Shown here piece after piece: positions 35,988-63,824 of a DNA stretch of 64,000 bases. The notes under the pieces were generated by a model. The model was not told the DNA's origin. It was given only the letters and a program-made list of their open reading frames with translations, and ran no database searches. Each line of letters begins with the position of its first letter. Positions within the stretch are counted from its first letter, which is position 1. This DNA is from Escherichia phage vB_EcoM_ESCO25: sequence record OM386656.1; one strand, 5' to 3'. The translations under genes were made by a program, and so were the position numbers.

Positions 35988-36174
35988 ATTTGCTTTCCTC
36001 GTTTTGGCTATTAATACATCTGTGTTTGAAATCTCCAGAGAAGCAATAAAGTTGCTCTCCATCTCGGTATAAACTCACTTTACTGCCGTTGATTACGCTT
36101 GTCAATACAAAAATTACAACAAACAACCCTATTGCAAAACAAATATTTTCAAACACAACCAACAAGTATTTCAT
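35929..36174 (-). CDS. small membrane protein (uncertain)
   Basis: 81-aa ORF with hydrophobic N-terminus; overlaps lipoprotein start by about 59 nt. Confidence 0.35.
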   Translation of the reverse strand: MKYLLVVFENICFAIGLFVVIFVLTSVINGSKVSLYRDGEQLYCFSGDFKHRCINSQNEESKYEKTSPDFNWLYLFNSLRG

Positions 36175-37555: not shown

Positions 37556-37614
37556 GCGGGGAACTATTCCCCGCTTCATGTGATATATCTTACTCTTTTT
37601 AAGAACTATGTCAA
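37556..37614 (-). promoter_or_regulatory. promoter plus 5' stem-loop unit driving terC (same family as right-end array)
   Basis: On - strand TTGACA, 16-nt spacer, TAAGAT, 12 nt, then GCGGGGAA-TAG-TTCCCCGC, then SD AGAGAGGAG and terC ATG. Confidence 0.6.
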
Positions 37615-49581: not shown

Positions 49582-49848
49582 TTAATGATTGATGTTGATG
49601 ACGATCTTAGTTTCAACCTTAGCCCAACAGGAATCTGCTTCATTAAAACGACTATTTGCAATGTATTCTCCTGCACGAGAACCTGTTAAGCAAACTGCAC
49701 CTGTATCTGTAGCTAAGTAGTAGTCCCGTTCTTGTTCATTTACTTCTGAGTTGTAGTAATAGAAAACAGACATAGGTTCAATTTCAGATAAACGGTATAA
49801 CTTTGGAACAGGGGATTTCTCGATAAACTCAACAGAAGTTTTACTCAT
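49582..49848 (-). CDS. hypothetical protein
   Basis: 88-aa ORF. Confidence 0.5.
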   Translation of the reverse strand: MSKTSVEFIEKSPVPKLYRLSEIEPMSVFYYYNSEVNEQERDYYLATDTGAVCLTGSRAGEYIANSRFNEADSCWAKVETKIVININH

Positions 49849-50081
49849 TTGTTTTCTCCTAGATCTAAACTAATTAAGAAGTCACGAAGGATGATCATTT
49901 GTTCTGTAGACAATGATAATACACCTTCTCCATAAATATCACCAGACCATTCAGCAGTTAGATCTAGTGTACCAGTACCAGGAAACCAATCAATAGTGAT
50001 CTGATTACCATTAGAGTCAGGTAGTATTTCACTGACTAACATAACACACTCTCCTATTATTGTTCTTGATCTTACGATCAT
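49845..50081 (-). CDS. hypothetical protein
   Basis: 78-aa ORF, SD TAGGAGAG. Confidence 0.5.
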   Translation of the reverse strand: MIVRSRTIIGECVMLVSEILPDSNGNQITIDWFPGTGTLDLTAEWSGDIYGEGVLSLSTEQMIILRDFLISLDLGENK

Positions 50082-50211
50082 CTACCGATAAGAACAAGTA
50101 CTTAAATCTCTGTTCTTCGAACATCTAACGATAGAGATTAATCTATTACATAATCTATACTCGCTATCGCTCGACCCTTCGGGGTTAGGGTAGCATATTT
50201 TTTGAAAAAAG
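50082..50211. promoter_or_regulatory. 130-bp intergenic region with nested dyad symmetries and a tetraloop hairpin
   Basis: Dyads CGATAG/CTATCG and GAAGAACA/TGTTCTT; hairpin ACCC-TTCG-GGGT; TTGACT overlapping upstream stop but no well-spaced -10. Confidence 0.4.
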
Positions 50212-50535
50212 TCAACACTTATTTTTGGTAAGTAGATAAATCAATTGTTCACCTGCTTCTGGTGCATATAGTGCTTTAGTATCGAAGTCAAAGAAGTGAG
50301 TGACTCCTGTTACTTTGGATGCCTGAATAGATAATCGTGCAAGCTTAAGCAGATTATCCATTTCTGCAATCTTTGCACGAAACACTGCACGTGTAGCGTC
50401 AAAAGCTGCATGTGGCATGTATTTACGATTTAGACTACTACGTTTAAATTTACGATAATCTGCAATGATCTTGTTACGTTCTTTGTTCAAGTGCTTTACC
50501 AGTGCAGTGTATACATGTGGTTCTTTGTTAGCCAT
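50212..50535 (-). CDS. hypothetical basic protein
   Basis: Start moved to ATG 50535 (SD GAGGAG); 107 aa. Confidence 0.5.
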   Translation of the reverse strand: MANKEPHVYTALVKHLNKERNKIIADYRKFKRSSLNRKYMPHAAFDATRAVFRAKIAEMDNLLKLARLSIQASKVTGVTHFFDFDTKALYAPEAGEQLIYLLTKNKC

Positions 50536-58231: not shown

Positions 58232-58287
58232 TATTTTAACTTTTTTCATTTTTAGAACAAAGGTGTCACTTTGTAGCACAGAAATAA

Positions 58288-58322
58288 GGCTCCTACAGCA
58301 CCGTAGAGAGCCTGTTATTTTG
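58288..58322 (+). terminator. putative terminator after NADAR gene
   Basis: GGCTCCTAC-AGCACC-GTAGAGAGCC imperfect stem then TGTTATTTTG. Confidence 0.45.
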
Positions 58323-58456
58323 TCCTATACAAACCCTTGTCTTTTTCAGTTTGCATCACTAGGATTCGATCTGAGTGGGTTCCTGAAGGTTTACCAATAA
58401 GATTAAAGGTTATATCAAATTCCCACTATCTTTTATCTCAAAAATCCCTCAAATTA

Positions 58457-58521
58457 TTTAAACTTTTTAAGAATTTACAAAAGTGAAAGTTGAAAACCAA
58501 AATTTAAAGTTTAGGAAAATT
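58457..58521. repeat. AT-rich direct repeat, copy 1 (65 bp)
   Basis: About 85 percent identical by manual alignment to copy at 58595..58659; shared core TTTACAAAA.TGAAAGT..AAAA.CAAAATTTAAAGTTTA. Confidence 0.7.
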
Positions 58522-58594
58522 ATCTTAAAATATTAGATACAAAACAAAACTCAAAAGTCAAGGAAAATTTTAAAAATTTTGCGCGCCCACAGTA

Positions 58595-58659
58595 TTTAAA
58601 GTTTTTTTGCTTTTACAAAAATGAAAGTACAAAAGCAAAATTTAAAGTTTACAAAAATT
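58595..58659. repeat. AT-rich direct repeat, copy 2 (65 bp)
   Basis: Second copy; 10 mismatches in 65 positions versus copy 1. Confidence 0.7.
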
Positions 58660-58671
58660 TTTATGCAGGTG

Positions 58672-58790
58672 AAAATGAGAAGAGTTCTCATATGGAAATG
58701 CAAATGATAATGATTCGCATTTAAGTTTATAAATGAGATTGATTCTTATTTAATAAGGTAAATGACAATCATTCTCATTTAGAGAATGAC
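58672..58790. repeat. cluster of AAATGA / TCATTT dyad elements (iteron/operator-like)
   Basis: ATGAGAA-GAG-TTCTCAT perfect palindrome (58675-58691); AAATGC..GCATTT (58696-58722); AAATGAGA..TCTCATTT and TAAATGA..TCATTTA further right. Confidence 0.6.
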
Positions 58791-59009
58791 GCGCAGGGGC
58801 GGTGTTTGTCTCGCGCTCCCGTGTCCCCTCGCCATGTAATAAGAATAACAGATCCAGCCAGGAAAGCAAGCGATTATTTTATCTTTACATTTCTTTACAA
58901 ATATATAGCACCCAGCCTACCGGCGATCAACCTTCCAACCAGTGCCCCCTGGTATGTTAGCCCCGCCTTTACGCCGTGGGGTGGCGCTTCCTCTTCTGTA
59001 TGTAAAACA

Positions 59010-59036
59010 GTATAAGCCCGATCCCTGGGCTTGTCA
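59010..59036 (-). terminator. hairpin downstream of - strand gene 59040..59306
   Basis: AAGCCC-(7 nt)-GGGCTT inverted repeat; T-rich flank on both strands. Confidence 0.4.
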
Positions 59037-59039
59037 AGA

Positions 59040-59306
59040 TTATTTTTTGTTTTCTTGCCAGGATAGGACACCTAACCAAAAATACATATCGCCCCGCGCC
59101 CCTGGTGGTATCTTGCTTTCCCCGCCGCCACTGCAAGCCCATAGATAACCATTTGCGAACGTATCAAAATGATCTATCTCTTCCACCTTATGATCGCCCA
59201 GGTTGAGAACGGTTTCAACCTTTAAGCCCGTTGCGCTTGCTACCTGGTGCACCGTGCCGCCTTGCCAGCCCAATGAGTGCATAAGGTGTAATGTAGTATT
59301 TGTCAT
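59040..59306 (-). CDS. hypothetical protein in GC-richer right segment
   Basis: 88-aa ORF with GC-rich codon choice; own promoter plus 5' hairpin; SD AAGGG. Confidence 0.5.
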   Translation of the reverse strand: MTNTTLHLMHSLGWQGGTVHQVASATGLKVETVLNLGDHKVEEIDHFDTFANGYLWACSGGGESKIPPGARGDMYFWLGVLSWQENKK

Positions 59307-59328
59307 GATATCGCCCTTTCTTTGTTGT

Positions 59329-59382
59329 GCGCCCTGGTTGGCGCGGTAGAAAGATAATAGCCCTTTTCTTTATATATAGCAA
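59329..59382 (-). promoter_or_regulatory. promoter plus 5' stem-loop for - strand gene 59040..59306
   Basis: On - strand TTGCTA, 17-nt spacer, TATTAT, about 9 nt, then GCGCC-AACCAG-GGCGC hairpin, then SD. Confidence 0.5.
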
Positions 59383-59414
59383 GCAAAAAGAAAATAAAAA
59401 AGATTGAAAAATGG

Positions 59415-59473
59415 TTGACGTTAACCAGGCGGCGGCGTAGTATTCATCTTGTAGGGCGGCAATGGTGCCGCTC
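59415..59473 (+). promoter_or_regulatory. promoter-hairpin unit 1 (hairpin type A)
   Basis: TTGACG 59415-59420, 17-nt spacer, TAGTAT 59438-59443, 10 nt, GGGCGGC-AATGGT-GCCGCTC 59454-59473. Confidence 0.6.
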
Positions 59474-59492
59474 ACTATTTGGAGTTAAGATC

Positions 59493-59690
59493 ATGGCAAC
59501 ATTGCACATTGTGGCGAAAGCTGGACAAATCAACGTAGTGGTAAACGGTTTTACTGAGTTCAGTCACCCCCAGGATGATCATGAAACGGTTTTATCTTTC
59601 ATTGATTCCCTGTTAGAAATGGGAGTCATTACAGAAGACCAGCACGCTACAAAATGCAAGCGCGTTAATCAAATCGCAGGAATAGAATAA
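59493..59690 (+). CDS. small early-region protein
   Basis: ATG 59493 after promoter-hairpin unit and SD GGAG; upstream extension of track ORF lacks SD. Confidence 0.5.
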   Translation: MATLHIVAKAGQINVVVNGFTEFSHPQDDHETVLSFIDSLLEMGVITEDQHATKCKRVNQIAGIE

Positions 59691-59697
59691 AAACTAT

Positions 59698-59756
59698 TGA
59701 CAACAAACAACAACCTGATAAGATGTATCACATAGGGCGGGAAGTGGTTTCCCGCT
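59698..59756 (+). promoter_or_regulatory. promoter-hairpin unit 2 (hairpin type B)
   Basis: TTGACA 59698-59703, 16-nt spacer, TAAGAT 59720-59725, linker GTATCACATAGG, GCGGGAA-GTGGT-TTCCCGC 59738-59756. Confidence 0.6.
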
Positions 59757-59780
59757 CGTAACAGAAGAGAGATTATCATC

Positions 59781-60053
59781 ATGGCATCATATAGCGCAAC
59801 AATGATCGTAGCTGGCACAACTGGTAAACCTATGAGCGGTGGCGGATCTTTCGCTAATATCAATATTGACGGGCGTTTATCCCTGGACGCAGCGATCGCT
59901 ATTGCACGGGAAACATTTAAGAAAGAATGTAATTTCAACAAGCAAGATTATCTCGGTTTCGCTATTGAAAAAACCGCGCGCTTTGTTGATTATAAAAGCC
60001 CGAAAATGGTTGATACTACACTAAAAGCGCAAGATGTAGCGTTTTTGCTTTAA
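59781..60053 (+). CDS. small early-region protein
   Basis: 90-aa ORF after promoter-hairpin unit, SD AGAAGAGAG. Confidence 0.5.
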   Translation: MASYSATMIVAGTTGKPMSGGGSFANINIDGRLSLDAAIAIARETFKKECNFNKQDYLGFAIEKTARFVDYKSPKMVDTTLKAQDVAFLL

Positions 60054-60056
60054 GGC

Positions 60057-60111
60057 TTGACATTAACGAATAATTTGTTAATATGTTACATAAAGCGGGA
60101 ATAGTTCCCGC
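60057..60111 (+). promoter_or_regulatory. promoter-hairpin unit 3 (hairpin type B)
   Basis: TTGACA 60057-60062, 16-nt spacer, TAATAT 60079-60084, then GCGGGAA-TAG-TTCCCGC 60095-60111. Confidence 0.6.
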
Positions 60112-60129
60112 TATTTGTAAGGTGGTAGA

Positions 60130-60387
60130 ATGTTTTACATCAAATTAAAAGGTCACGTGATCGCGTTCAAAGATAACGCTTTTTACAGATTAGCAAAATA
60201 TGCGTTAATACATCCCCACTATGTTTATATAAGGAGGCGTGATGAAATAAATATCTTTGATCAAACAACATGCGAGAACATCGAGATCCGCAAGGTTGGC
60301 GTACGTGATTATCGTACATCTTTCTACCCTTGCAAGGATTCAGCAAGTCTTTTTAAAGTATGCCAATTGTTGAAAAAAGGTGGTTAA
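60130..60387 (+). CDS. small early-region protein
   Basis: 85-aa ORF after promoter-hairpin unit, SD AAGGTGG. Confidence 0.5.
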   Translation: MFYIKLKGHVIAFKDNAFYRLAKYALIHPHYVYIRRRDEINIFDQTTCENIEIRKVGVRDYRTSFYPCKDSASLFKVCQLLKKGG

Positions 60388-60388
60388 T

Positions 60389-60946
60389 ATGGGCCGCGAA
60401 TATGTGATCCAGTCTTGGGTAAAACATGAAGCAGATGATCCGCGCATCATTCCCGATCATCTTATCGATGAATCCACGGGATATAGCGGTGAGCAAATAG
60501 GTAACAGATTAGCACGTAGTAACGGCAACGTAAAAGCGCGTTATGTGCGCCCTGGTTGGCTGGCAAATGGTAACGCTGATTTATCCAGTGCGGAAGATGC
60601 GAGCGACGGCGCGAAAGATAATCCTTTGTACAAAGTTGATCCGGCTTTTCGTGTCCTGGATGAATACCCCAGCAAGATAGCGGCGCTCGATCAGGCCCTG
60701 GAAAGTAAGCGCATCACCTGGACCGCTTACAACATGGCAAAAAACGTACTTGATGGTAAATTGATTCAAGCTGAAAGAAAATTAGCCAAAATTGCAGCCA
60801 TAGCCCAGGAGGAAGACGAGGAGACAACGGAAGAGGAAGAGTACGAAGAGATCCCGCCGTTGTTGTGTGTTGATGCTTTTCCTGATTATCAGCCGACAGA
60901 GGAAGAAAAAAGGATCGCACTAGAAAACTTTGAAAATAGTCTTTGA
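60389..60946 (+). CDS. hypothetical protein with highly acidic C-terminal region
   Basis: ATG 60389; C-terminal EEDEETTEEEEYEEIPP tract. Confidence 0.5.
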   Translation: MGREYVIQSWVKHEADDPRIIPDHLIDESTGYSGEQIGNRLARSNGNVKARYVRPGWLANGNADLSSAEDASDGAKDNPLYKVDPAFRVLDEYPSKIAALDQALESKRITWTAYNMAKNVLDGKLIQAERKLAKIAAIAQEEDEETTEEEEYEEIPPLLCVDAFPDYQPTEEEKRIALENFENSL

Positions 60947-61001
60947 CATATCGCCGCCACTGGCATAATATTTACCACGTAGGGCGGCAATGGTGCCGCT
61001 C
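60943..61001 (+). promoter_or_regulatory. promoter-hairpin unit 4 (hairpin type A)
   Basis: TTGACA 60943-60948, 17-nt spacer, TAATAT 60966-60971, 10 nt, GGGCGGC-AATGGT-GCCGCTC 60982-61001. Confidence 0.6.
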
Positions 61002-61028
61002 ATAGTGAAATTATGCAAGAGGCTTACA

Positions 61029-61124
61029 ATGATTAATAAAGAAAATAGCTTGACGGTTGGAACGATTAACGCTATCATTCTAGCCGTTCCATTTTGGATT
61101 GTAGTAGCGGCTATTATTTTCTAA
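61029..61124 (+). CDS. hydrophobic micro-protein (31 aa)
   Basis: Promoter-hairpin unit then SD AAGAGG then ATG; single TM-like segment; below track cutoff. Confidence 0.4.
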   Translation: MINKENSLTVGTINAIILAVPFWIVVAAIIF

Positions 61125-61132
61125 AAATATTC

Positions 61133-61193
61133 TTGACAACGTTTTTTAATCTGATAAGATGTATCACATAGGGCGGCGGAATACTTCCCCGCC
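61133..61193 (+). promoter_or_regulatory. promoter-hairpin unit 5 (hairpin type C, bulged)
   Basis: TTGACA 61133-61138, 16-nt spacer, TAAGAT 61155-61160, linker GTATCACATA, GGCGGCGGAA-TAC-TTCCCCGCC 61172-61193. Confidence 0.6.
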
Positions 61194-61214
61194 AAAACAA
61201 AAAAGGGTAACACA

Positions 61215-61577
61215 ATGAGCAAGCAAATCAATACTATCATGTTAAACCTGGTATCCTTCCGCGATGATATGAAAAATTTACCACGTGAAACGGTTGATAT
61301 TCATGTTTCAGCTTATCGCGCCCTTATTGACATGTTACCGCTAAAACGTGATCAACATGCCGCTAACATGATGCTTAATGCTATGCTTAAAAAGATGATT
61401 CAAACGGATCTCATCCTGGCGTATGAGTATCAAGGGCGCTTATATGCTACTTACAACAAGGCGGTACCTGGTCTGGGAAGTACCGAAGAGTTGCACGGCT
61501 TAAACCTGGATCAGAACACTTGGGATAGTATGCGCCGCGTTATGGTATGGGCCGAAAGCGGTAAAATTTACGAATAA
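61215..61577 (+). CDS. small early-region protein
   Basis: 120-aa ORF after promoter-hairpin unit, SD AAAGGG. Confidence 0.5.
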   Translation: MSKQINTIMLNLVSFRDDMKNLPRETVDIHVSAYRALIDMLPLKRDQHAANMMLNAMLKKMIQTDLILAYEYQGRLYATYNKAVPGLGSTEELHGLNLDQNTWDSMRRVMVWAESGKIYE

Positions 61578-61582
61578 AACGG

Positions 61583-61639
61583 TTGACACTGTTTAAAATT
61601 CTGGTATAGTTTATCACGTAGGGCGGCAATGGTGCCGCC
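61583..61639 (+). promoter_or_regulatory. promoter-hairpin unit 6 (hairpin type A)
   Basis: TTGACA 61583-61588, 16-nt spacer, TATAGT 61605-61610, 10 nt, GGGCGGC-AATGGT-GCCGCC 61621-61639. Confidence 0.6.
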
Positions 61640-61659
61640 AACAATAAAAGGTTAACATC

Positions 61660-61839
61660 ATGACTATCATTGCAAAAACTGAGATTATAGGTTTAGATTC
61701 GATCCTCCTGGCTTATGAGGAAACTTTAAAAATGTATGTAGTGACCTATGGTGATTATGTGCGTGAATACGAATACATTGATCTTGCTTTCGAATGTTAC
61801 ATTCGCCAGGTCAATAAAGCCTATAACGATTATCGTTAA
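61660..61839 (+). CDS. small early-region protein (59 aa)
   Basis: Promoter-hairpin unit then SD AAAAGG then ATG; below track cutoff. Confidence 0.45.
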   Translation: MTIIAKTEIIGLDSILLAYEETLKMYVVTYGDYVREYEYIDLAFECYIRQVNKAYNDYR

Positions 61840-61858
61840 AAGTTTTAGTCTTATACTA

Positions 61859-61910
61859 TTGACAATGAGTGATAGTATAAGCATAATAACTTTTATCGGG
61901 AATACTTCCC
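61859..61910 (+). promoter_or_regulatory. promoter-hairpin unit 7 (degenerate hairpin)
   Basis: TTGACA 61859-61864, 17-nt spacer, CATAAT 61882-61887, then weak GGGAA-TAC-TTCCC 61898-61910. Confidence 0.5.
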
Positions 61911-61936
61911 ACTAACCAAAAAAAGAGAGTAATATC

Positions 61937-62302
61937 ATGGCTATTAATATCAATGTTTCCTCTTATGCTACCCTGGCTGACACGGCTAAAATTGAATTAT
62001 CCAGCATTGAGGCGGTGCATATTAGCGCCCGTCGTTGGTTTCAACAGTCCTACGGTAACACATATTTTTCTTTAATGGTTGACGTTGAGATCGGCGGTAA
62101 ACTGATCGAGGTGGTTAACGTTCCGTTTCAATATGGTTATGGTGATCATTTTGATACCGTCGCCCTGGAAGAATTTAGCAAGGTTATTAATATGGAAGGT
62201 AAAGAGTTTTCACGCGGCGCGTATCTTTCCCGTTTTTGCCGTGACAATGGGATCACTGTATACAGTCATGCAAGCGATGTTAAACGTAAAAAAGATTTAT
62301 AA
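61937..62302 (+). CDS. small early-region protein
   Basis: 121-aa ORF after promoter-hairpin unit, SD AAGAGAG. Confidence 0.5.
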   Translation: MAININVSSYATLADTAKIELSSIEAVHISARRWFQQSYGNTYFSLMVDVEIGGKLIEVVNVPFQYGYGDHFDTVALEEFSKVINMEGKEFSRGAYLSRFCRDNGITVYSHASDVKRKKDL

Positions 62303-62308
62303 AAAGCA

Positions 62309-62371
62309 TTGACAGCACGAATAAAAAGAGTAAACTGTATTACATCAAGGCGGCGGAATGGTCCACCGCCT
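62309..62371 (+). promoter_or_regulatory. promoter-hairpin unit 8 (hairpin type C)
   Basis: TTGACA 62309-62314, 16-nt spacer, TAAACT 62331-62336, linker GTATTACATCA, AGGCGGCGG-AATGGT-CCACCGCCT 62348-62371. Confidence 0.6.
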
Positions 62372-62394
62372 AACAAAGAGAAGAGGAAAACATC

Positions 62395-62562
62395 ATGATC
62401 ACTTTCGCTACCCGTGAAGCCGCTCGCAACGTTGCCCGTAAAGTTAACGCCGCCAACCTGGGCGCTACGCTTAAAGCCCCTGTAAAAGATGAATCAGGAA
62501 AATGGATCTTCCCTGGTCTGCGTCATGCTGACAAGTTAGGTACTTTAAGCCTTAAAAAATAA
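62395..62562 (+). CDS. small basic early-region protein (55 aa)
   Basis: Promoter-hairpin unit then SD GAGAAGAGGAAAA then ATG; shares first 21 nt with 62637 ORF. Confidence 0.45.
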   Translation: MITFATREAARNVARKVNAANLGATLKAPVKDESGKWIFPGLRHADKLGTLSLKK

Positions 62563-62565
62563 TCG

Positions 62566-62603
62566 TTGACTTTTCGTTATAGCGCCTTATAATGGGCGCT
62601 ATA
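62566..62603 (+). promoter_or_regulatory. promoter unit 9 with inverted repeat enclosing the -10 box
   Basis: TTGACT 62566-62571, 16-nt spacer, consensus TATAAT 62588-62593; 9-bp arms TATAGCGCC (62578-62586) and GGCGCTATA (62595-62603) flank the -10. Confidence 0.6.
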
Positions 62604-62636
62604 GAGAAGAGAAACCACTACTAACAAGGAAACATC

Positions 62637-62858
62637 ATGATCACTTTCGCTATTGTCGCCGTTGTCGCTGGTCAGGTTTACATAAACGATACATTCACCA
62701 CAGAAGACAAGGCCGCAGGAGACATAACCGCCGTTTACAATGAGTGCAAGGCAGTAGAAAGGATGTTAGCGCCTTGTATGCTAATGAGTGAACGCCAGGA
62801 CGGGATAACAGTATTTACTAACATTGAAACAGGGTACCAAATGGTAGTAACAAAATAA
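62637..62858 (+). CDS. small early-region protein with hydrophobic N-terminus
   Basis: 73-aa ORF after promoter with palindrome around -10. Confidence 0.5.
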   Translation: MITFAIVAVVAGQVYINDTFTTEDKAAGDITAVYNECKAVERMLAPCMLMSERQDGITVFTNIETGYQMVVTK

Positions 62859-62861
62859 AGC

Positions 62862-62918
62862 TTGACACGGATTTAATTTTTAGTAAACTGTTACACGTAG
62901 GGCGGGAATAGTTCCCGC
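62862..62918 (+). promoter_or_regulatory. promoter-hairpin unit 10 (hairpin type B)
   Basis: TTGACA 62862-62867, 16-nt spacer, TAAACT 62884-62889, linker GTTACACGTAGG, GCGGGAA-TAG-TTCCCGC 62902-62918. Confidence 0.6.
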
Positions 62919-62937
62919 TCAAAAAGAGAGAAAGACC

Positions 62938-63291
62938 ATGAAAGCACAAAATGCAATTAAAGAGTACATCCTTGCCGCTATCGATTTTAATGATTACGGT
63001 ATTACAACCGAAAAAGAGAAGATCGCGGAATTGATGCGCCGTTTTAATTCCGAGTACTGGTACCCTGATAACCAATCACGTTTTAATTATAGTATTGTTA
63101 AAGCACTTGCATCATGGTTACAAGGCTTGCCATCAGATATCAATATCGCTTTCGAATATTGGGAAATTGATCGCCTGTTAACATCCTGGGGATACATTAA
63201 AGAGAATAGCAGCGATGATAAAATCCAACGAGAAAGGGAAAATTATTGGCTTTATATTGCAGGCGTGATCCTTGCTTGCTCTTATGAATGA
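62938..63291 (+). CDS. small early-region protein
   Basis: 117-aa ORF after promoter-hairpin unit, SD AGAGAGAAAGA. Confidence 0.5.
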   Translation: MKAQNAIKEYILAAIDFNDYGITTEKEKIAELMRRFNSEYWYPDNQSRFNYSIVKALASWLQGLPSDINIAFEYWEIDRLLTSWGYIKENSSDDKIQRERENYWLYIAGVILACSYE

Positions 63292-63297
63292 TAAACC

Positions 63298-63351
63298 TTG
63301 ACAATTTTACAAAACAGTTTAAATTAACAATATAGCGGCAATGGTGCCGCT
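63298..63351 (+). promoter_or_regulatory. promoter-hairpin unit 11 (hairpin type A variant)
   Basis: TTGACA 63298-63303, about 16-nt spacer, TAAATT-like -10, then AGCGGC-AATGGT-GCCGCT 63334-63351. Confidence 0.55.
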
Positions 63352-63370
63352 CATATGAAGAGGAAACAAA

Positions 63371-63517
63371 ATGAATACATCTAATCGCGCAGAAAAAATT
63401 CAATCTTCCAAGATCCGCAAGGCCTGGAACGAGGAAGTGATCCGCAAAGGCGACAAGCGCAATAAAACAAAGCGTGGGAAGAGTGACAAATATAATTGGA
63501 TGGATTTAGAGGATTAA
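63371..63517 (+). CDS. highly basic micro-protein (48 aa)
   Basis: Promoter-hairpin unit then SD AAGAGGAAA then ATG; Lys/Arg-rich; terminator directly downstream. Confidence 0.45.
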   Translation: MNTSNRAEKIQSSKIRKAWNEEVIRKGDKRNKTKRGKSDKYNWMDLED

Positions 63518-63525
63518 CATAACAA

Positions 63526-63552
63526 GGGGCGCACCAAGCGCCCTTTCTTTTT
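63526..63552 (+). terminator. rho-independent terminator after 48-aa basic ORF
   Basis: GGGGCGC-ACCAA-GCGCCC then TTTCTTTTT. Confidence 0.7.
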
Positions 63553-63573
63553 ACATGTAGAGGATAAACAAAG

Positions 63574-63759
63574 ATGACTTTAAGCGAGCTTAAAACAGCC
63601 TACAACGCAACGTTAAAAATAGCCGTGCGTTACCGTGACGAATACGGTTTTATTGCGCAGGGCGTGATCCTGGGCTTTTCTGACGATGGTTTGATCTATG
63701 TTGATGCACATCACAATAAGGTTAAACCTGAAAACGTCATTAGCATAAAATATCTTTAA
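63574..63759 (+). CDS. small early-region protein
   Basis: 61-aa ORF, SD GAGGAT. Confidence 0.45.
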   Translation: MTLSELKTAYNATLKIAVRYRDEYGFIAQGVILGFSDDGLIYVDAHHNKVKPENVISIKYL

Positions 63760-63765
63760 AAGTGG

Positions 63766-63824
63766 TTGACACCATAACCGGACCTGTTAAACTGTATTAC
63801 ATCAGGCGGGGAATAGTTCCCACC
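63766..63824 (+). promoter_or_regulatory. promoter-hairpin unit 12 (hairpin type B variant)
   Basis: TTGACA 63766-63771, 16-nt spacer, TAAACT 63788-63793, linker GTATTACATCA, GGCGGGGAA-TAG-TTCCCACC 63805-63824. Confidence 0.55.

Follow-up and report, generated by a model that had tools for sequence, protein, structure and literature searches.

In the lambdoid phages and in HK022, each genome has two or three nut or put sites, which follow closely behind early promoters; each site is a short conserved sequence with a small hairpin and works in cis, enabling the polymerase that transcribes it to pass terminators. In the leaders of long enterobacterial operons, RfaH reads a GC-G-NN-A-GC hairpin in the non-template strand of the ops element, and the change G5A abolishes its recruitment (PMC5995543). 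Mini-hairpin DNA of the form GCG(N1-2)AGC, with two G:C pairs, a closing sheared G.A pair, any base at N and loops of three or four, has been described at sites in G4, St-1, alpha3 and RSF1010 ssiA and in the N4 early promoters (PMC13037366), and the PeSL elements of T4-like phages join a strong sigma-70-like promoter and an AT-rich upstream tract to an adjacent stem-loop and are repeated in the genome (PMC2839356, PMC4122927). Here we compare with these systems a gap between two small genes in a stretch of 64,000 nucleotides from Escherichia phage vB_EcoM_ESCO25 (sequence record OM386656.1; the whole stretch is called the window). We read the gap as a promoter cassette followed by an untranslated leader, with a 14-base box close behind the predicted transcription start as a promoter-proximal signal, and we put the probability of this overall reading at roughly 0.6.

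Every gene between 16.9 and 51.9 kb of the window lies on the minus strand, in a 35-kb cluster, and the gap is therefore to be read on that strand, where its layout is AAAAATAAGTG TTGACT TTTTTCAAAAAATA TGC TACCCT AACCCC G AAGGGT CGAGCGATAGCGAG TATAG ... AGGAG ... ATG. All the sequence features of a sigma-70 promoter with an extended −10 are found here, namely the −35, the spacer, TGn, TAnnnT and a purine start (Table 1). The TTGACT that an earlier note on this DNA had seen overlapping the upstream stop is confirmed and is the −35 hexamer of this predicted promoter. Across 18 variants of the core, the −35 reads TTGAC(T/A) or TTTACT in all and stands 17-18 nt ahead of TACCCT, the run of (A/G)TG(C/G) and then TACCCT-A is invariant, and a T-run followed by an A-run is kept in the spacer of most. 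TACCCT itself agrees with TAnnnT at the three specified bases, positions 1 (T), 2 (A) and 6 (T). In 16 of the 18 variants, positions 6 and 7 after the hexamer are a pyrimidine and a purine, and it is because of this step that the G at 50180 is predicted as the likely transcription start. Neighbouring gaps of the minus-strand cluster hold ordinary TTGACA-N16-18-TAnnnT promoters, often just after a terminator made of a hairpin plus a T-run, so promoters in this genome do sit in such gaps.

The second constant part of the core is the box, in which CGAGCG and GCGAG are invariant across the variants and only the one to three bases between them change. It takes seven forms in the 18 variants (GCGATAGC, GCGGGAGC, GCGAAGC, GCGCAGC, GCGTAAGC, GCGAAAGC and GCGAATGC), all of them flanked by CGA and GAG; six of these, accounting for 17 of the 18 related variants, fit GCG(N1-2)AGC, the exception being the GCGAATGC of Citrobacter phage Tr1. 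The core in the window, GCGATAGC, fits the mini-hairpin DNA motif (GCGNNAGC or GCGNAGC). Variation in the box is limited to the free loop positions and to loop length, which is the pattern that would be expected from selection for the hairpin. The complement (GCT..CGC) departs from the motif; the feature is thus specific to the sense strand, where it could be formed by non-template DNA or by RNA. The 5'-CGA and GAG-3' flanks may contribute a further C:G pair together with tandem G.A pairing, as in tandem G.A motifs. The CGATAG half-dyad of the earlier note turns out to be the loop region of the box. No further copy of the box or of its complement, with up to 2 mismatches, is present in the phage genome; TATGCTACCCT at 61964, considered as a second site in the window, lies inside a gene without a −35 and was rejected as a chance match.

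The gap as a whole is under constraint and about five times less variable than its flanking genes: 2 of its 169 columns (1.2%) vary against five relatives, each with 35-75 differences from the window over 2.5 kb, compared with 5.4-6.3% of columns in the flanking genes. It had been described in the earlier note as a 130-bp intergenic region at 50082-50211, unusually long for the genome. The region is intergenic, but the true gap is 169 nt (50043-50211), as the downstream gene starts at the ATG at 50042; it is also long, the second longest in the minus-strand cluster, but not unique, since others are longer, the longest in the cluster having 183 nt (35988-36170). All the motifs that the note had named (CGATAG/CTATCG, AAGAACA/TGTTCTT, ACCC-TTCG-GGGT and TTGACT) are found in the sequence, and the dyads do exceed chance, if modestly: 6 inverted 6-mers in 50082-50211 against 1.7 in dinucleotide shuffles (P ~0.03), and 9 against an expected 2.0 in the full gap (P = 0.004). 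A folding check on the gap gave z = −2.0 for the sense strand and −2.4 for the plus strand.

Between the −10 and the box lies a segment of 11-17 nt whose sequence is variable. In most phage variants it forms a small dyad, built from unrelated sequences (ACCC/GGGT, CAC/GTG, ACCT/AGGT, AACC/GGTT, GTAT/ATAC and AAACAT/ATGTTT), and the best stems of these start-site dyads sum to 39 against 26.7 +/- 2.1 in shuffles, a comparison that overstates independence because the variants are related. In the window this dyad is the tetraloop hairpin of the earlier note; the hairpin is present, but its UUCG loop lies antisense because the genes are on the minus strand, and the loop on the sense strand is CGAA. 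The leader, predicted to run from the G at 50180 to the first downstream gene, contains a 16-nt direct repeat, CGATCATCTACCGATA and CGAACATCTAACGATA (50075-50090 and 50118-50133, plus strand), with agreement at 14/16 bases and copies 43 nt apart. The AAGAACA/TGTTCTT dyad is in fact a triple on the minus strand, AAGAACA (50117-50111), TGTTCTT (50096-50090) and AAGAACA (50067-50061), in which the central TGTTCTT is able to pair with either neighbour. The 3' half of the leader is 90% identical in phiWec181-type phages, though the gene behind it differs there. The leader has local hairpins; RNAalifold found no conserved fold in five leaders of the window type (−2.2 kcal/mol), and no terminator-like site was called on the sense strand of the gap.

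The core is not confined to this gap. A second match to the gap turned up in most related genomes, and pattern scans of IMG/VR showed the core to be repeated several times within a contig; when a loose pattern lacking the −35 was used, most matches arose by chance in GC-rich contigs and were filtered out. A search of IMG/VR with the 107-amino-acid protein encoded upstream of the gap gave nothing, and the related loci came from DNA patterns. In searches with a profile of the core built from the 18 variants, the window yields one copy (E = 1e-17) and phAPEC8_ev052 (LR597654.1) three, the next best match having E > 5, and two other full-length contigs have three copies each. The promoter-plus-box core is present in three copies per Stephanstirmvirinae genome, which we call A (the window copy), B and C. 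The gene for the 107-amino-acid protein keeps its place beside the element across the subfamily: phiWec181, Nernie, Citrobacter phage Tr1 and an IMG/VR phage (L021) each have, immediately upstream of the element, a homologue with 35-44% identity, and in all four the first downstream gene has been replaced; as the core is near-invariant next to a protein of such low identity, it is far better conserved than the proteins that surround it. Behind copy B (LR597654.1 62190-62500) come five GTACT repeats in a span of 35 nt and two ~45-nt tracts of 100% AT; of the three copies it is the most origin-like. Ten tRNA genes at 63478-65493 of LR597654.1 are given on the minus strand in the record, whereas ARAGORN puts all of them on the plus strand, which makes them co-oriented with copy B. 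Copy C (LR597654.1 22470-22700) is preceded by two direct repeats, ATTGATAGG, which recur conserved in a phiWec181-like contig (L034); together with its homologues it faces the 3' end of a convergent gene after ~120-130 nt without an open reading frame (ORF), at ~125 nt for the predicted copy-C transcript, and could make a short or antisense RNA. In four C-type copies, RNAalifold gave the box hairpin as the sole consensus structure, at about −2 kcal/mol. A comparison with Rfam 15 yielded no match above gathering score in the window, in copy C or in the bacterial islands described below, and the sub-threshold matches were at chance level only.

Table 1. Features of the gap, its neighbours and the copies of the core, in window coordinates unless an accession is given.
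Feature	Position	Strand	Remarks
−35 hexamer TTGACT	50210..50215	-	near-consensus; overlaps the TGA stop (50214-50212) of the 107-amino-acid gene
A-rich tract AAAAATAA	50227-50220	-	just upstream of the −35
17-nt spacer TTTTTCAAAAAATATGC	50193..50209	-	T-tract/A-tract dyad; 3' end is the TGC of the extended −10 (50195-50193)
−10 hexamer TACCCT	50187..50192	-	invariant in 18/18 family members
Dyad ACCC-CGAA-GGGT	50174..50185	-	centred on the predicted start, G 50180
Box CGAGCGATAGCGAG	50160..50173	-	14 bases, about +8 to +21; within the first 21 transcribed bases as predicted
Box core GCGATAGC	50170-50163	-	about +11 to +18; mini-hairpin motif, flanks CGA and GAG
Predicted 5' leader	50043..50180	-	138 nt, G 50180 to gene; Shine-Dalgarno AGGAG 50055-50051
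Upstream gene	50212..50535	-	107 amino acids, phrog_14778 (function unknown); its stop overlaps the −35
First downstream gene	49845..50042	-	65 amino acids, phrog_25113 (function unknown); first gene served by the predicted promoter
Copy A	window gap	-	at the head of a ~33-kb cluster that has five or more clear terminators
Copy B	LR597654.1 ~62.2 kb	+	480-nt divergent gap, ahead of two small genes and a tRNA cluster; outside the window
Copy C	LR597654.1 ~22.6 kb	-	antisense in a 360-nt gap of a plus-strand early-gene cluster; outside the window
CGATAG	50129-50134	+	motif named in the earlier note
CTATCG	50164-50169	+	motif named in the earlier note
AAGAACA	50090-50096	+	motif named in the earlier note
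TGTTCTT	50061-50067 and 50111-50117	+	motif named in the earlier note
ACCC-TTCG-GGGT	50174-50185	+	hairpin named in the earlier note

The three TACCCT sites are set apart from roughly 14 ordinary early promoters by the invariant TACCCT and the invariant transcribed box. Thirteen near-identical cassettes of the ordinary kind are present in the window, at 59697-63766 on the plus strand and at 37614 on the minus strand (at least 14 in the genome); each consists of an A-rich tract, TTGACA-16-18-TAAGAT/TAAACT and, at ~+5, a conserved hairpin GCGG(G/C)..AAT(A/G)GT..CCGC, and each precedes a small gene. Compared with phAPEC8_ev052, the window lacks ~950 nt and another 300 nt in the region of these early-gene cassettes (~61000-63500 against L004 11000-13500), which fits the gain and loss of cassettes between repeated promoters.

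In sequence comparison, the 2.5-kb stretch around the gap shares 99.9% identity with Escherichia phage ESCO13 and 97-99.8% with about 50 further phages of the genus Phapecoctavirus. The window belongs to this genus (Stephanstirmvirinae) and is phAPEC8/ESCO13-like, in a group of ~150-kb myoviruses; its coordinates are collinear with those of phAPEC8_ev052, offset from about base 85575. The minus-strand cluster encodes SSB, a polymerase-type exonuclease, a primase/helicase, an anaerobic ribonucleotide reductase, a UvrD-type helicase and many small proteins. Behind the 65-amino-acid gene come further small genes and then the replication and nucleotide-metabolism cluster; for the proteins that flank the gap, no functional assignment was obtained for any. 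The start of the 65-amino-acid gene, seven bases after AGGAG, is annotated at the same ATG in every related record, and the ATG at 50081 has no ribosome-binding site. We considered a 31-amino-acid ORF (50029-50124) and the frame opened by the in-frame ATG at 50081 as coding and rejected both, as they have no ribosome-binding sites and single-base indels in phiWec181 break them; since the 31-amino-acid frame is broken in this way, the leader region is non-coding. A tRNA/tmRNA search of the window found none. The replication cluster (minus-strand gaps between 16845 and 43027) is divided into units by terminator-then-promoter pairs: clear terminators with a hairpin and a T-run stand at ~42990, 36545, 23380, 19450 and 16870 (at least five), and most are followed by a TTGACA-type promoter within 60 nt.

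The same core was sought in bacteria, where a scan of 185,579 species genomes gave 25 matches, about the number expected by chance. Seven of the 25 have a correct −35; two of these, a Proteobacteria MAG contig (L160; MAG, metagenome-assembled genome) and a 453-bp Lysobacteraceae contig (L171), both filed as bacterial, are identical to the phage gap and most likely contaminating copies of this phage, and the other five come from the complete chromosome of Citrobacter sp. OP27, two Buttiauxella MAGs, a Scandinavium MAG and an uncultured bacterium. Our set of integrase-bearing islands comprised L165 (Citrobacter sp. OP27, CP191518.1), L175, L177, L163 and L149 (an IMG/VR contig). In the Citrobacter, the two Buttiauxella and the Scandinavium loci and in L149 (the uncultured bacterium excepted), promoter and box are followed by ~230 nt of conserved non-coding sequence with two hairpins that show compensatory changes, the first being TATCCC-GAA-GGGATA, TTCTCC-TGAA-AGGAGA or CTCTC-GAA-GAGAG and the second, which is recognisable in the phage C-type copies too, TTTCATG-TTAGT-CATGAAA or TTCCATG-ACAGT-CATGGAA. 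In L165 and L149 the element comes directly after a tyrosine integrase gene and is followed by ~900 nt without an ORF; in L149 this stretch leads to a perfect consensus promoter, behind which lie three small genes, of which one is endonuclease VII-like, and the gene for a DUF5906 protein. The match between the island sequence and the phage collection is confined to the 41-nt core, no homologues of the island proteins were found in the phage, and the island sequence was absent from 5,426 complete E. coli genomes. A P4-type immunity leader (PLE / CI RNA) was considered for the islands and rejected, as neither the core profile nor the island proteins find any similarity in P4. Here a lytic phage's regulatory core sits in an integrative element, as would be expected of a satellite that senses its helper, and the islands may be such satellites.

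All these observations lead us to the following reading of the window copy. Host RNA polymerase with sigma-70 would bind TTGACT - 17 nt - TGC-TACCCT by virtue of the near-consensus −35, the optimal spacing and the extended −10, and transcription would begin at the G at 50180. The box, CGA-GCGATAGC-GAG, would fold on the sense strand into a compact hairpin with two G:C pairs, a sheared G.A pair and the flanking tandem G.A, and the transcript would cross the 138-nt leader to AGGAG/ATG (50055-50040) and continue into the small genes and the replication and nucleotide-metabolism cluster with its several intrinsic terminators. The box may then act as ops, nut or put sites do, modifying the polymerase at the head of a long operon, and not merely as a 5' stabiliser. 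From its sequence, we think it quite probable that the gap provides a promoter and leader for the downstream minus-strand operon. A promoter-proximal role for the box, as a signal recognised on the nascent RNA or on the transcription complex, is a tentative proposal made by analogy, which we favour because the copies are few, their place after the start is fixed, copy A stands at the head of a cluster with several intrinsic terminators and the hairpin belongs to the kind recognised by RfaH in ops. The figure given above for the overall reading was chosen between our confidence in these two parts. The earlier suggestion of a regulatory hub is modestly upheld, inasmuch as TTGACT is the −35 of a conserved promoter and the hairpin and CGATAG belong to the start-site region and the box; the other dyads, AAGAACA/TGTTCTT, fall in the leader, which lacks a fold conserved among relatives.

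Several points weigh against this reading. TACCCT agrees with TATAAT at 3/6 bases, for which reason a simple consensus scan misses it, and it places three G:C pairs where the DNA must melt. In the literature searched we found no transcriptome of this phage group, and no candidate protein reading the box was identified. The variants share kinship, so that counts such as 17/18 overstate independent support. The core folds no better than shuffles in most variants (z mostly between −2.5 and +1.5, both strands); nearest-neighbour energies fail to single out the box hairpin because such models lack parameters for the motif, and the structural argument therefore rests on how the variants fit the motif and where they differ. 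If transcription begins in the loop of the start-site dyad, the RNA holds only the 3' half of the dyad, which cannot form in the transcript and for which this reading does not account. Finally, the conservation of the box also fits a DNA operator or a 5' stabiliser.

The stabiliser deserves to be weighed first. Here the gap would be a promoter with a plain mRNA-stabilising 5' hairpin, and the box would only protect the 5' end from decay, a role that stem-loops at the 5' end play in many phage and bacterial mRNAs, with no factor reading it. A promoter-proximal hairpin is the local norm, given that the other early promoters also carry a conserved one at ~+5, and the box lies within 8 nt of the predicted 5' end. 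However, a stabiliser needs structure and not an invariant 11-base sequence kept across genera whose neighbouring proteins are as diverged as those described above. Not only is the hairpin tiny and without predicted stability as RNA (~−2 kcal/mol), but its loops GAUA, GAA and GCA suit the DNA mini-hairpin rule better than the RNA GNRA rule, and both the invariant TACCCT and the restriction of the box to three promoters would be left without explanation. We regard a mere stabiliser as rather unlikely.

A second alternative is an R-loop replication origin of the kind of T4 oriF/oriG or the T7 primary origin, in which the hybridised transcript would prime replication and the mini-hairpin would stabilise the displaced strand. 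The three copies per genome, placed regardless of the orientation of neighbouring genes (copy C even being antisense), would suit such a role, as would the GTACT repeats and AT tracts after copy B and the occurrence of mini-hairpin motifs at the priming sites of G4, St-1, alpha3 and RSF1010 ssiA (PMC13037366). The window copy, on the other hand, runs directly into a translated gene and has no AT-rich unwinding tract: AT content downstream is 66-76%, with 30-nt bins spanning 43-76%, against 61% for the genome, and tracts of 100% AT occur only after copy B. GC skew turns only where transcription direction turns; the rV5 paper likewise ties skew changes to transcription direction, and reports consensus promoters only. 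Moreover, the islands that share the element carry their own replication-type protein of the DUF5906 kind, without a phage homologue, and another part of the window, 58420-58790, is far more origin-like. An R-loop origin in the gap, and with it the secondary origin that the earlier note had offered, is improbable.

The region just mentioned lies in 1.26 kb without an annotated gene (58233-59495), a stretch that resembles an origin or an operator array much more closely than the gap does. Its very AT-rich and repeat-dense part, 58420-58790, contains a direct repeat of 72 nt, with copies at 58450 and 58588 that share 82% identity, and four palindromic sites, AAATGAGA..TCTCATTT, 29 nt apart at 58673, 58702, 58731 and 58759. 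The GC-rich part contains a minus-strand ORF of 88 amino acids (59040-59306) that is absent from the annotation of LR597654.1, and also a minus-strand promoter, TTGACA-17-TATACT at 59037, with a GC hairpin in its spacer.

The third alternative is a stand-alone small RNA gene, also among the earlier suggestions, whose conserved 5' box would be the seed for pairing with targets. Conservation at the 5' end is what one would expect of a seed region, copy C and its homologues meet the 3' end of a convergent gene after their short ORF-less stretch, and behind the island copies lie a conserved non-coding sequence that includes compensatory hairpins and, separately, a perfect consensus promoter for the genes. 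In the window copy, however, there is no terminator of its own on the sense strand, a co-oriented gene with a ribosome-binding site begins at +139, and Rfam has no match; the complement of the box, with up to 2 mismatches, is absent from elsewhere in the phage genome, and no fold beyond the box is conserved among A-type or C-type copies. We consider this very improbable, and since the window copy has neither a terminator nor an unwinding element, a small RNA or an origin is unlikely there; these two are the weakest readings for the window copy. A spacer or remnant of a deleted gene, with its dyads due to chance, is scarcely credible, for although replacements of the downstream gene among relatives, folding z values of only about −2 and an unconserved leader fold would suit it, it is contradicted by a gap that varies five times less than its flanks, by a core kept three times per genome across the subfamily and by dyads in excess of shuffles.

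Returning to the promoter with its box and leader, the outcome is three precise sites per genome that are distinct from the ordinary early promoters, together with a 14-base box that has a defined, strand-specific hairpin pattern. The phAPEC8 and phi92 group is widely isolated for therapy, and its transcription programme is unmapped. If the box is read by a phage factor, a lytic phage would here reprogramme the host polymerase by a new route, and the box would supply a compact, portable control element; if the box only stabilises, a clean annotation of a promoter and leader left blank in current records would still be gained. More doubtful is the further idea that the TACCCT promoter and box form a group-specific signal for a polymerase-modifying or activating factor made by Stephanstirmvirinae, and that the islands use it to sense infection. 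In that case sites A and B would activate or prolong transcription of the replication cluster and of the tRNA/late region, respectively, and site C would direct antisense transcription into early genes; the signal would correspond in function to ops, nut or Q sites, but in large lytic myoviruses. The islands, with the same signal after int and ahead of a conserved non-coding RNA, would be satellites listening to the regulatory code of their helper; the core in these chromosomal islands suggests that satellites of large lytic phages, a kind known from very few phage groups, may exist in the hosts concerned.

How does the element compare with the described systems? As a combination of promoter and hairpin it is apparently undescribed in the literature searched and in Rfam. 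With PeSL it shares the sigma-70-like promoter, the AT-rich upstream tract, the adjacent stem-loop and the repetition in the genome, and both adjoin small genes of unknown function that are swapped between relatives. The stem-loops of PeSL, however, are terminators, numerous hairpins with a G-run and a C-run, whereas there are three copies here with hairpins at or after the start; neither hairpin of the gap has a T-run on the sense strand and no terminator was called in it. Unlike PeSL, moreover, the element has a −10 and a 14-nt transcribed box that are invariant across genera, and the other early promoters of the window (59.7-63.8 kb) are closer to PeSL than it is. In the lambdoid nut and HK022 put sites we find the same low copy number, promoter-proximal position and combination of a short sequence with a small hairpin, but the order and sizes of the parts differ. 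Reading 50043-50215 on either strand, we found neither a boxA (CGCTCTTA-like) nor a boxB-type hairpin with a GNRA-like pentaloop, and this phage group is not known to have an N-like protein.

As for ops, both are promoter-proximal, belong to the non-template strand and stand at the head of a long operon, and the box has the GC-G-NN-A-GC hairpin. The ops core, GCGGTAGC, and the box core, GCGATAGC, are one base apart, and the differing base is G5. Compared with the ops 12-mer, GGCGGTAGnnTG, the box, GAGCGATAGCGAG, has A at G5 and A at T11, which turns the pause T11-G12 into A-G, and unlike that of ops its loop varies among members in length and sequence (GAA, GCA, GATA, GGGA, GTAA and GAAA). Because of the A at the G5 position and the variable loops, the box resembles ops but is no ops site. 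Finally, the box core fits mini-hairpin DNA exactly, and the variation among the 18 members obeys the rules of the motif, with any N and loops of 3 or 4; known mini-hairpins act on single-stranded templates, for primase or for the N4 virion polymerase, whereas the box lies in duplex DNA, 8-21 nt past a sigma-70-type start. The element thus shares features with PeSL, ops, nut/put and mini-hairpin sites, and departs from each of them in a defining feature.

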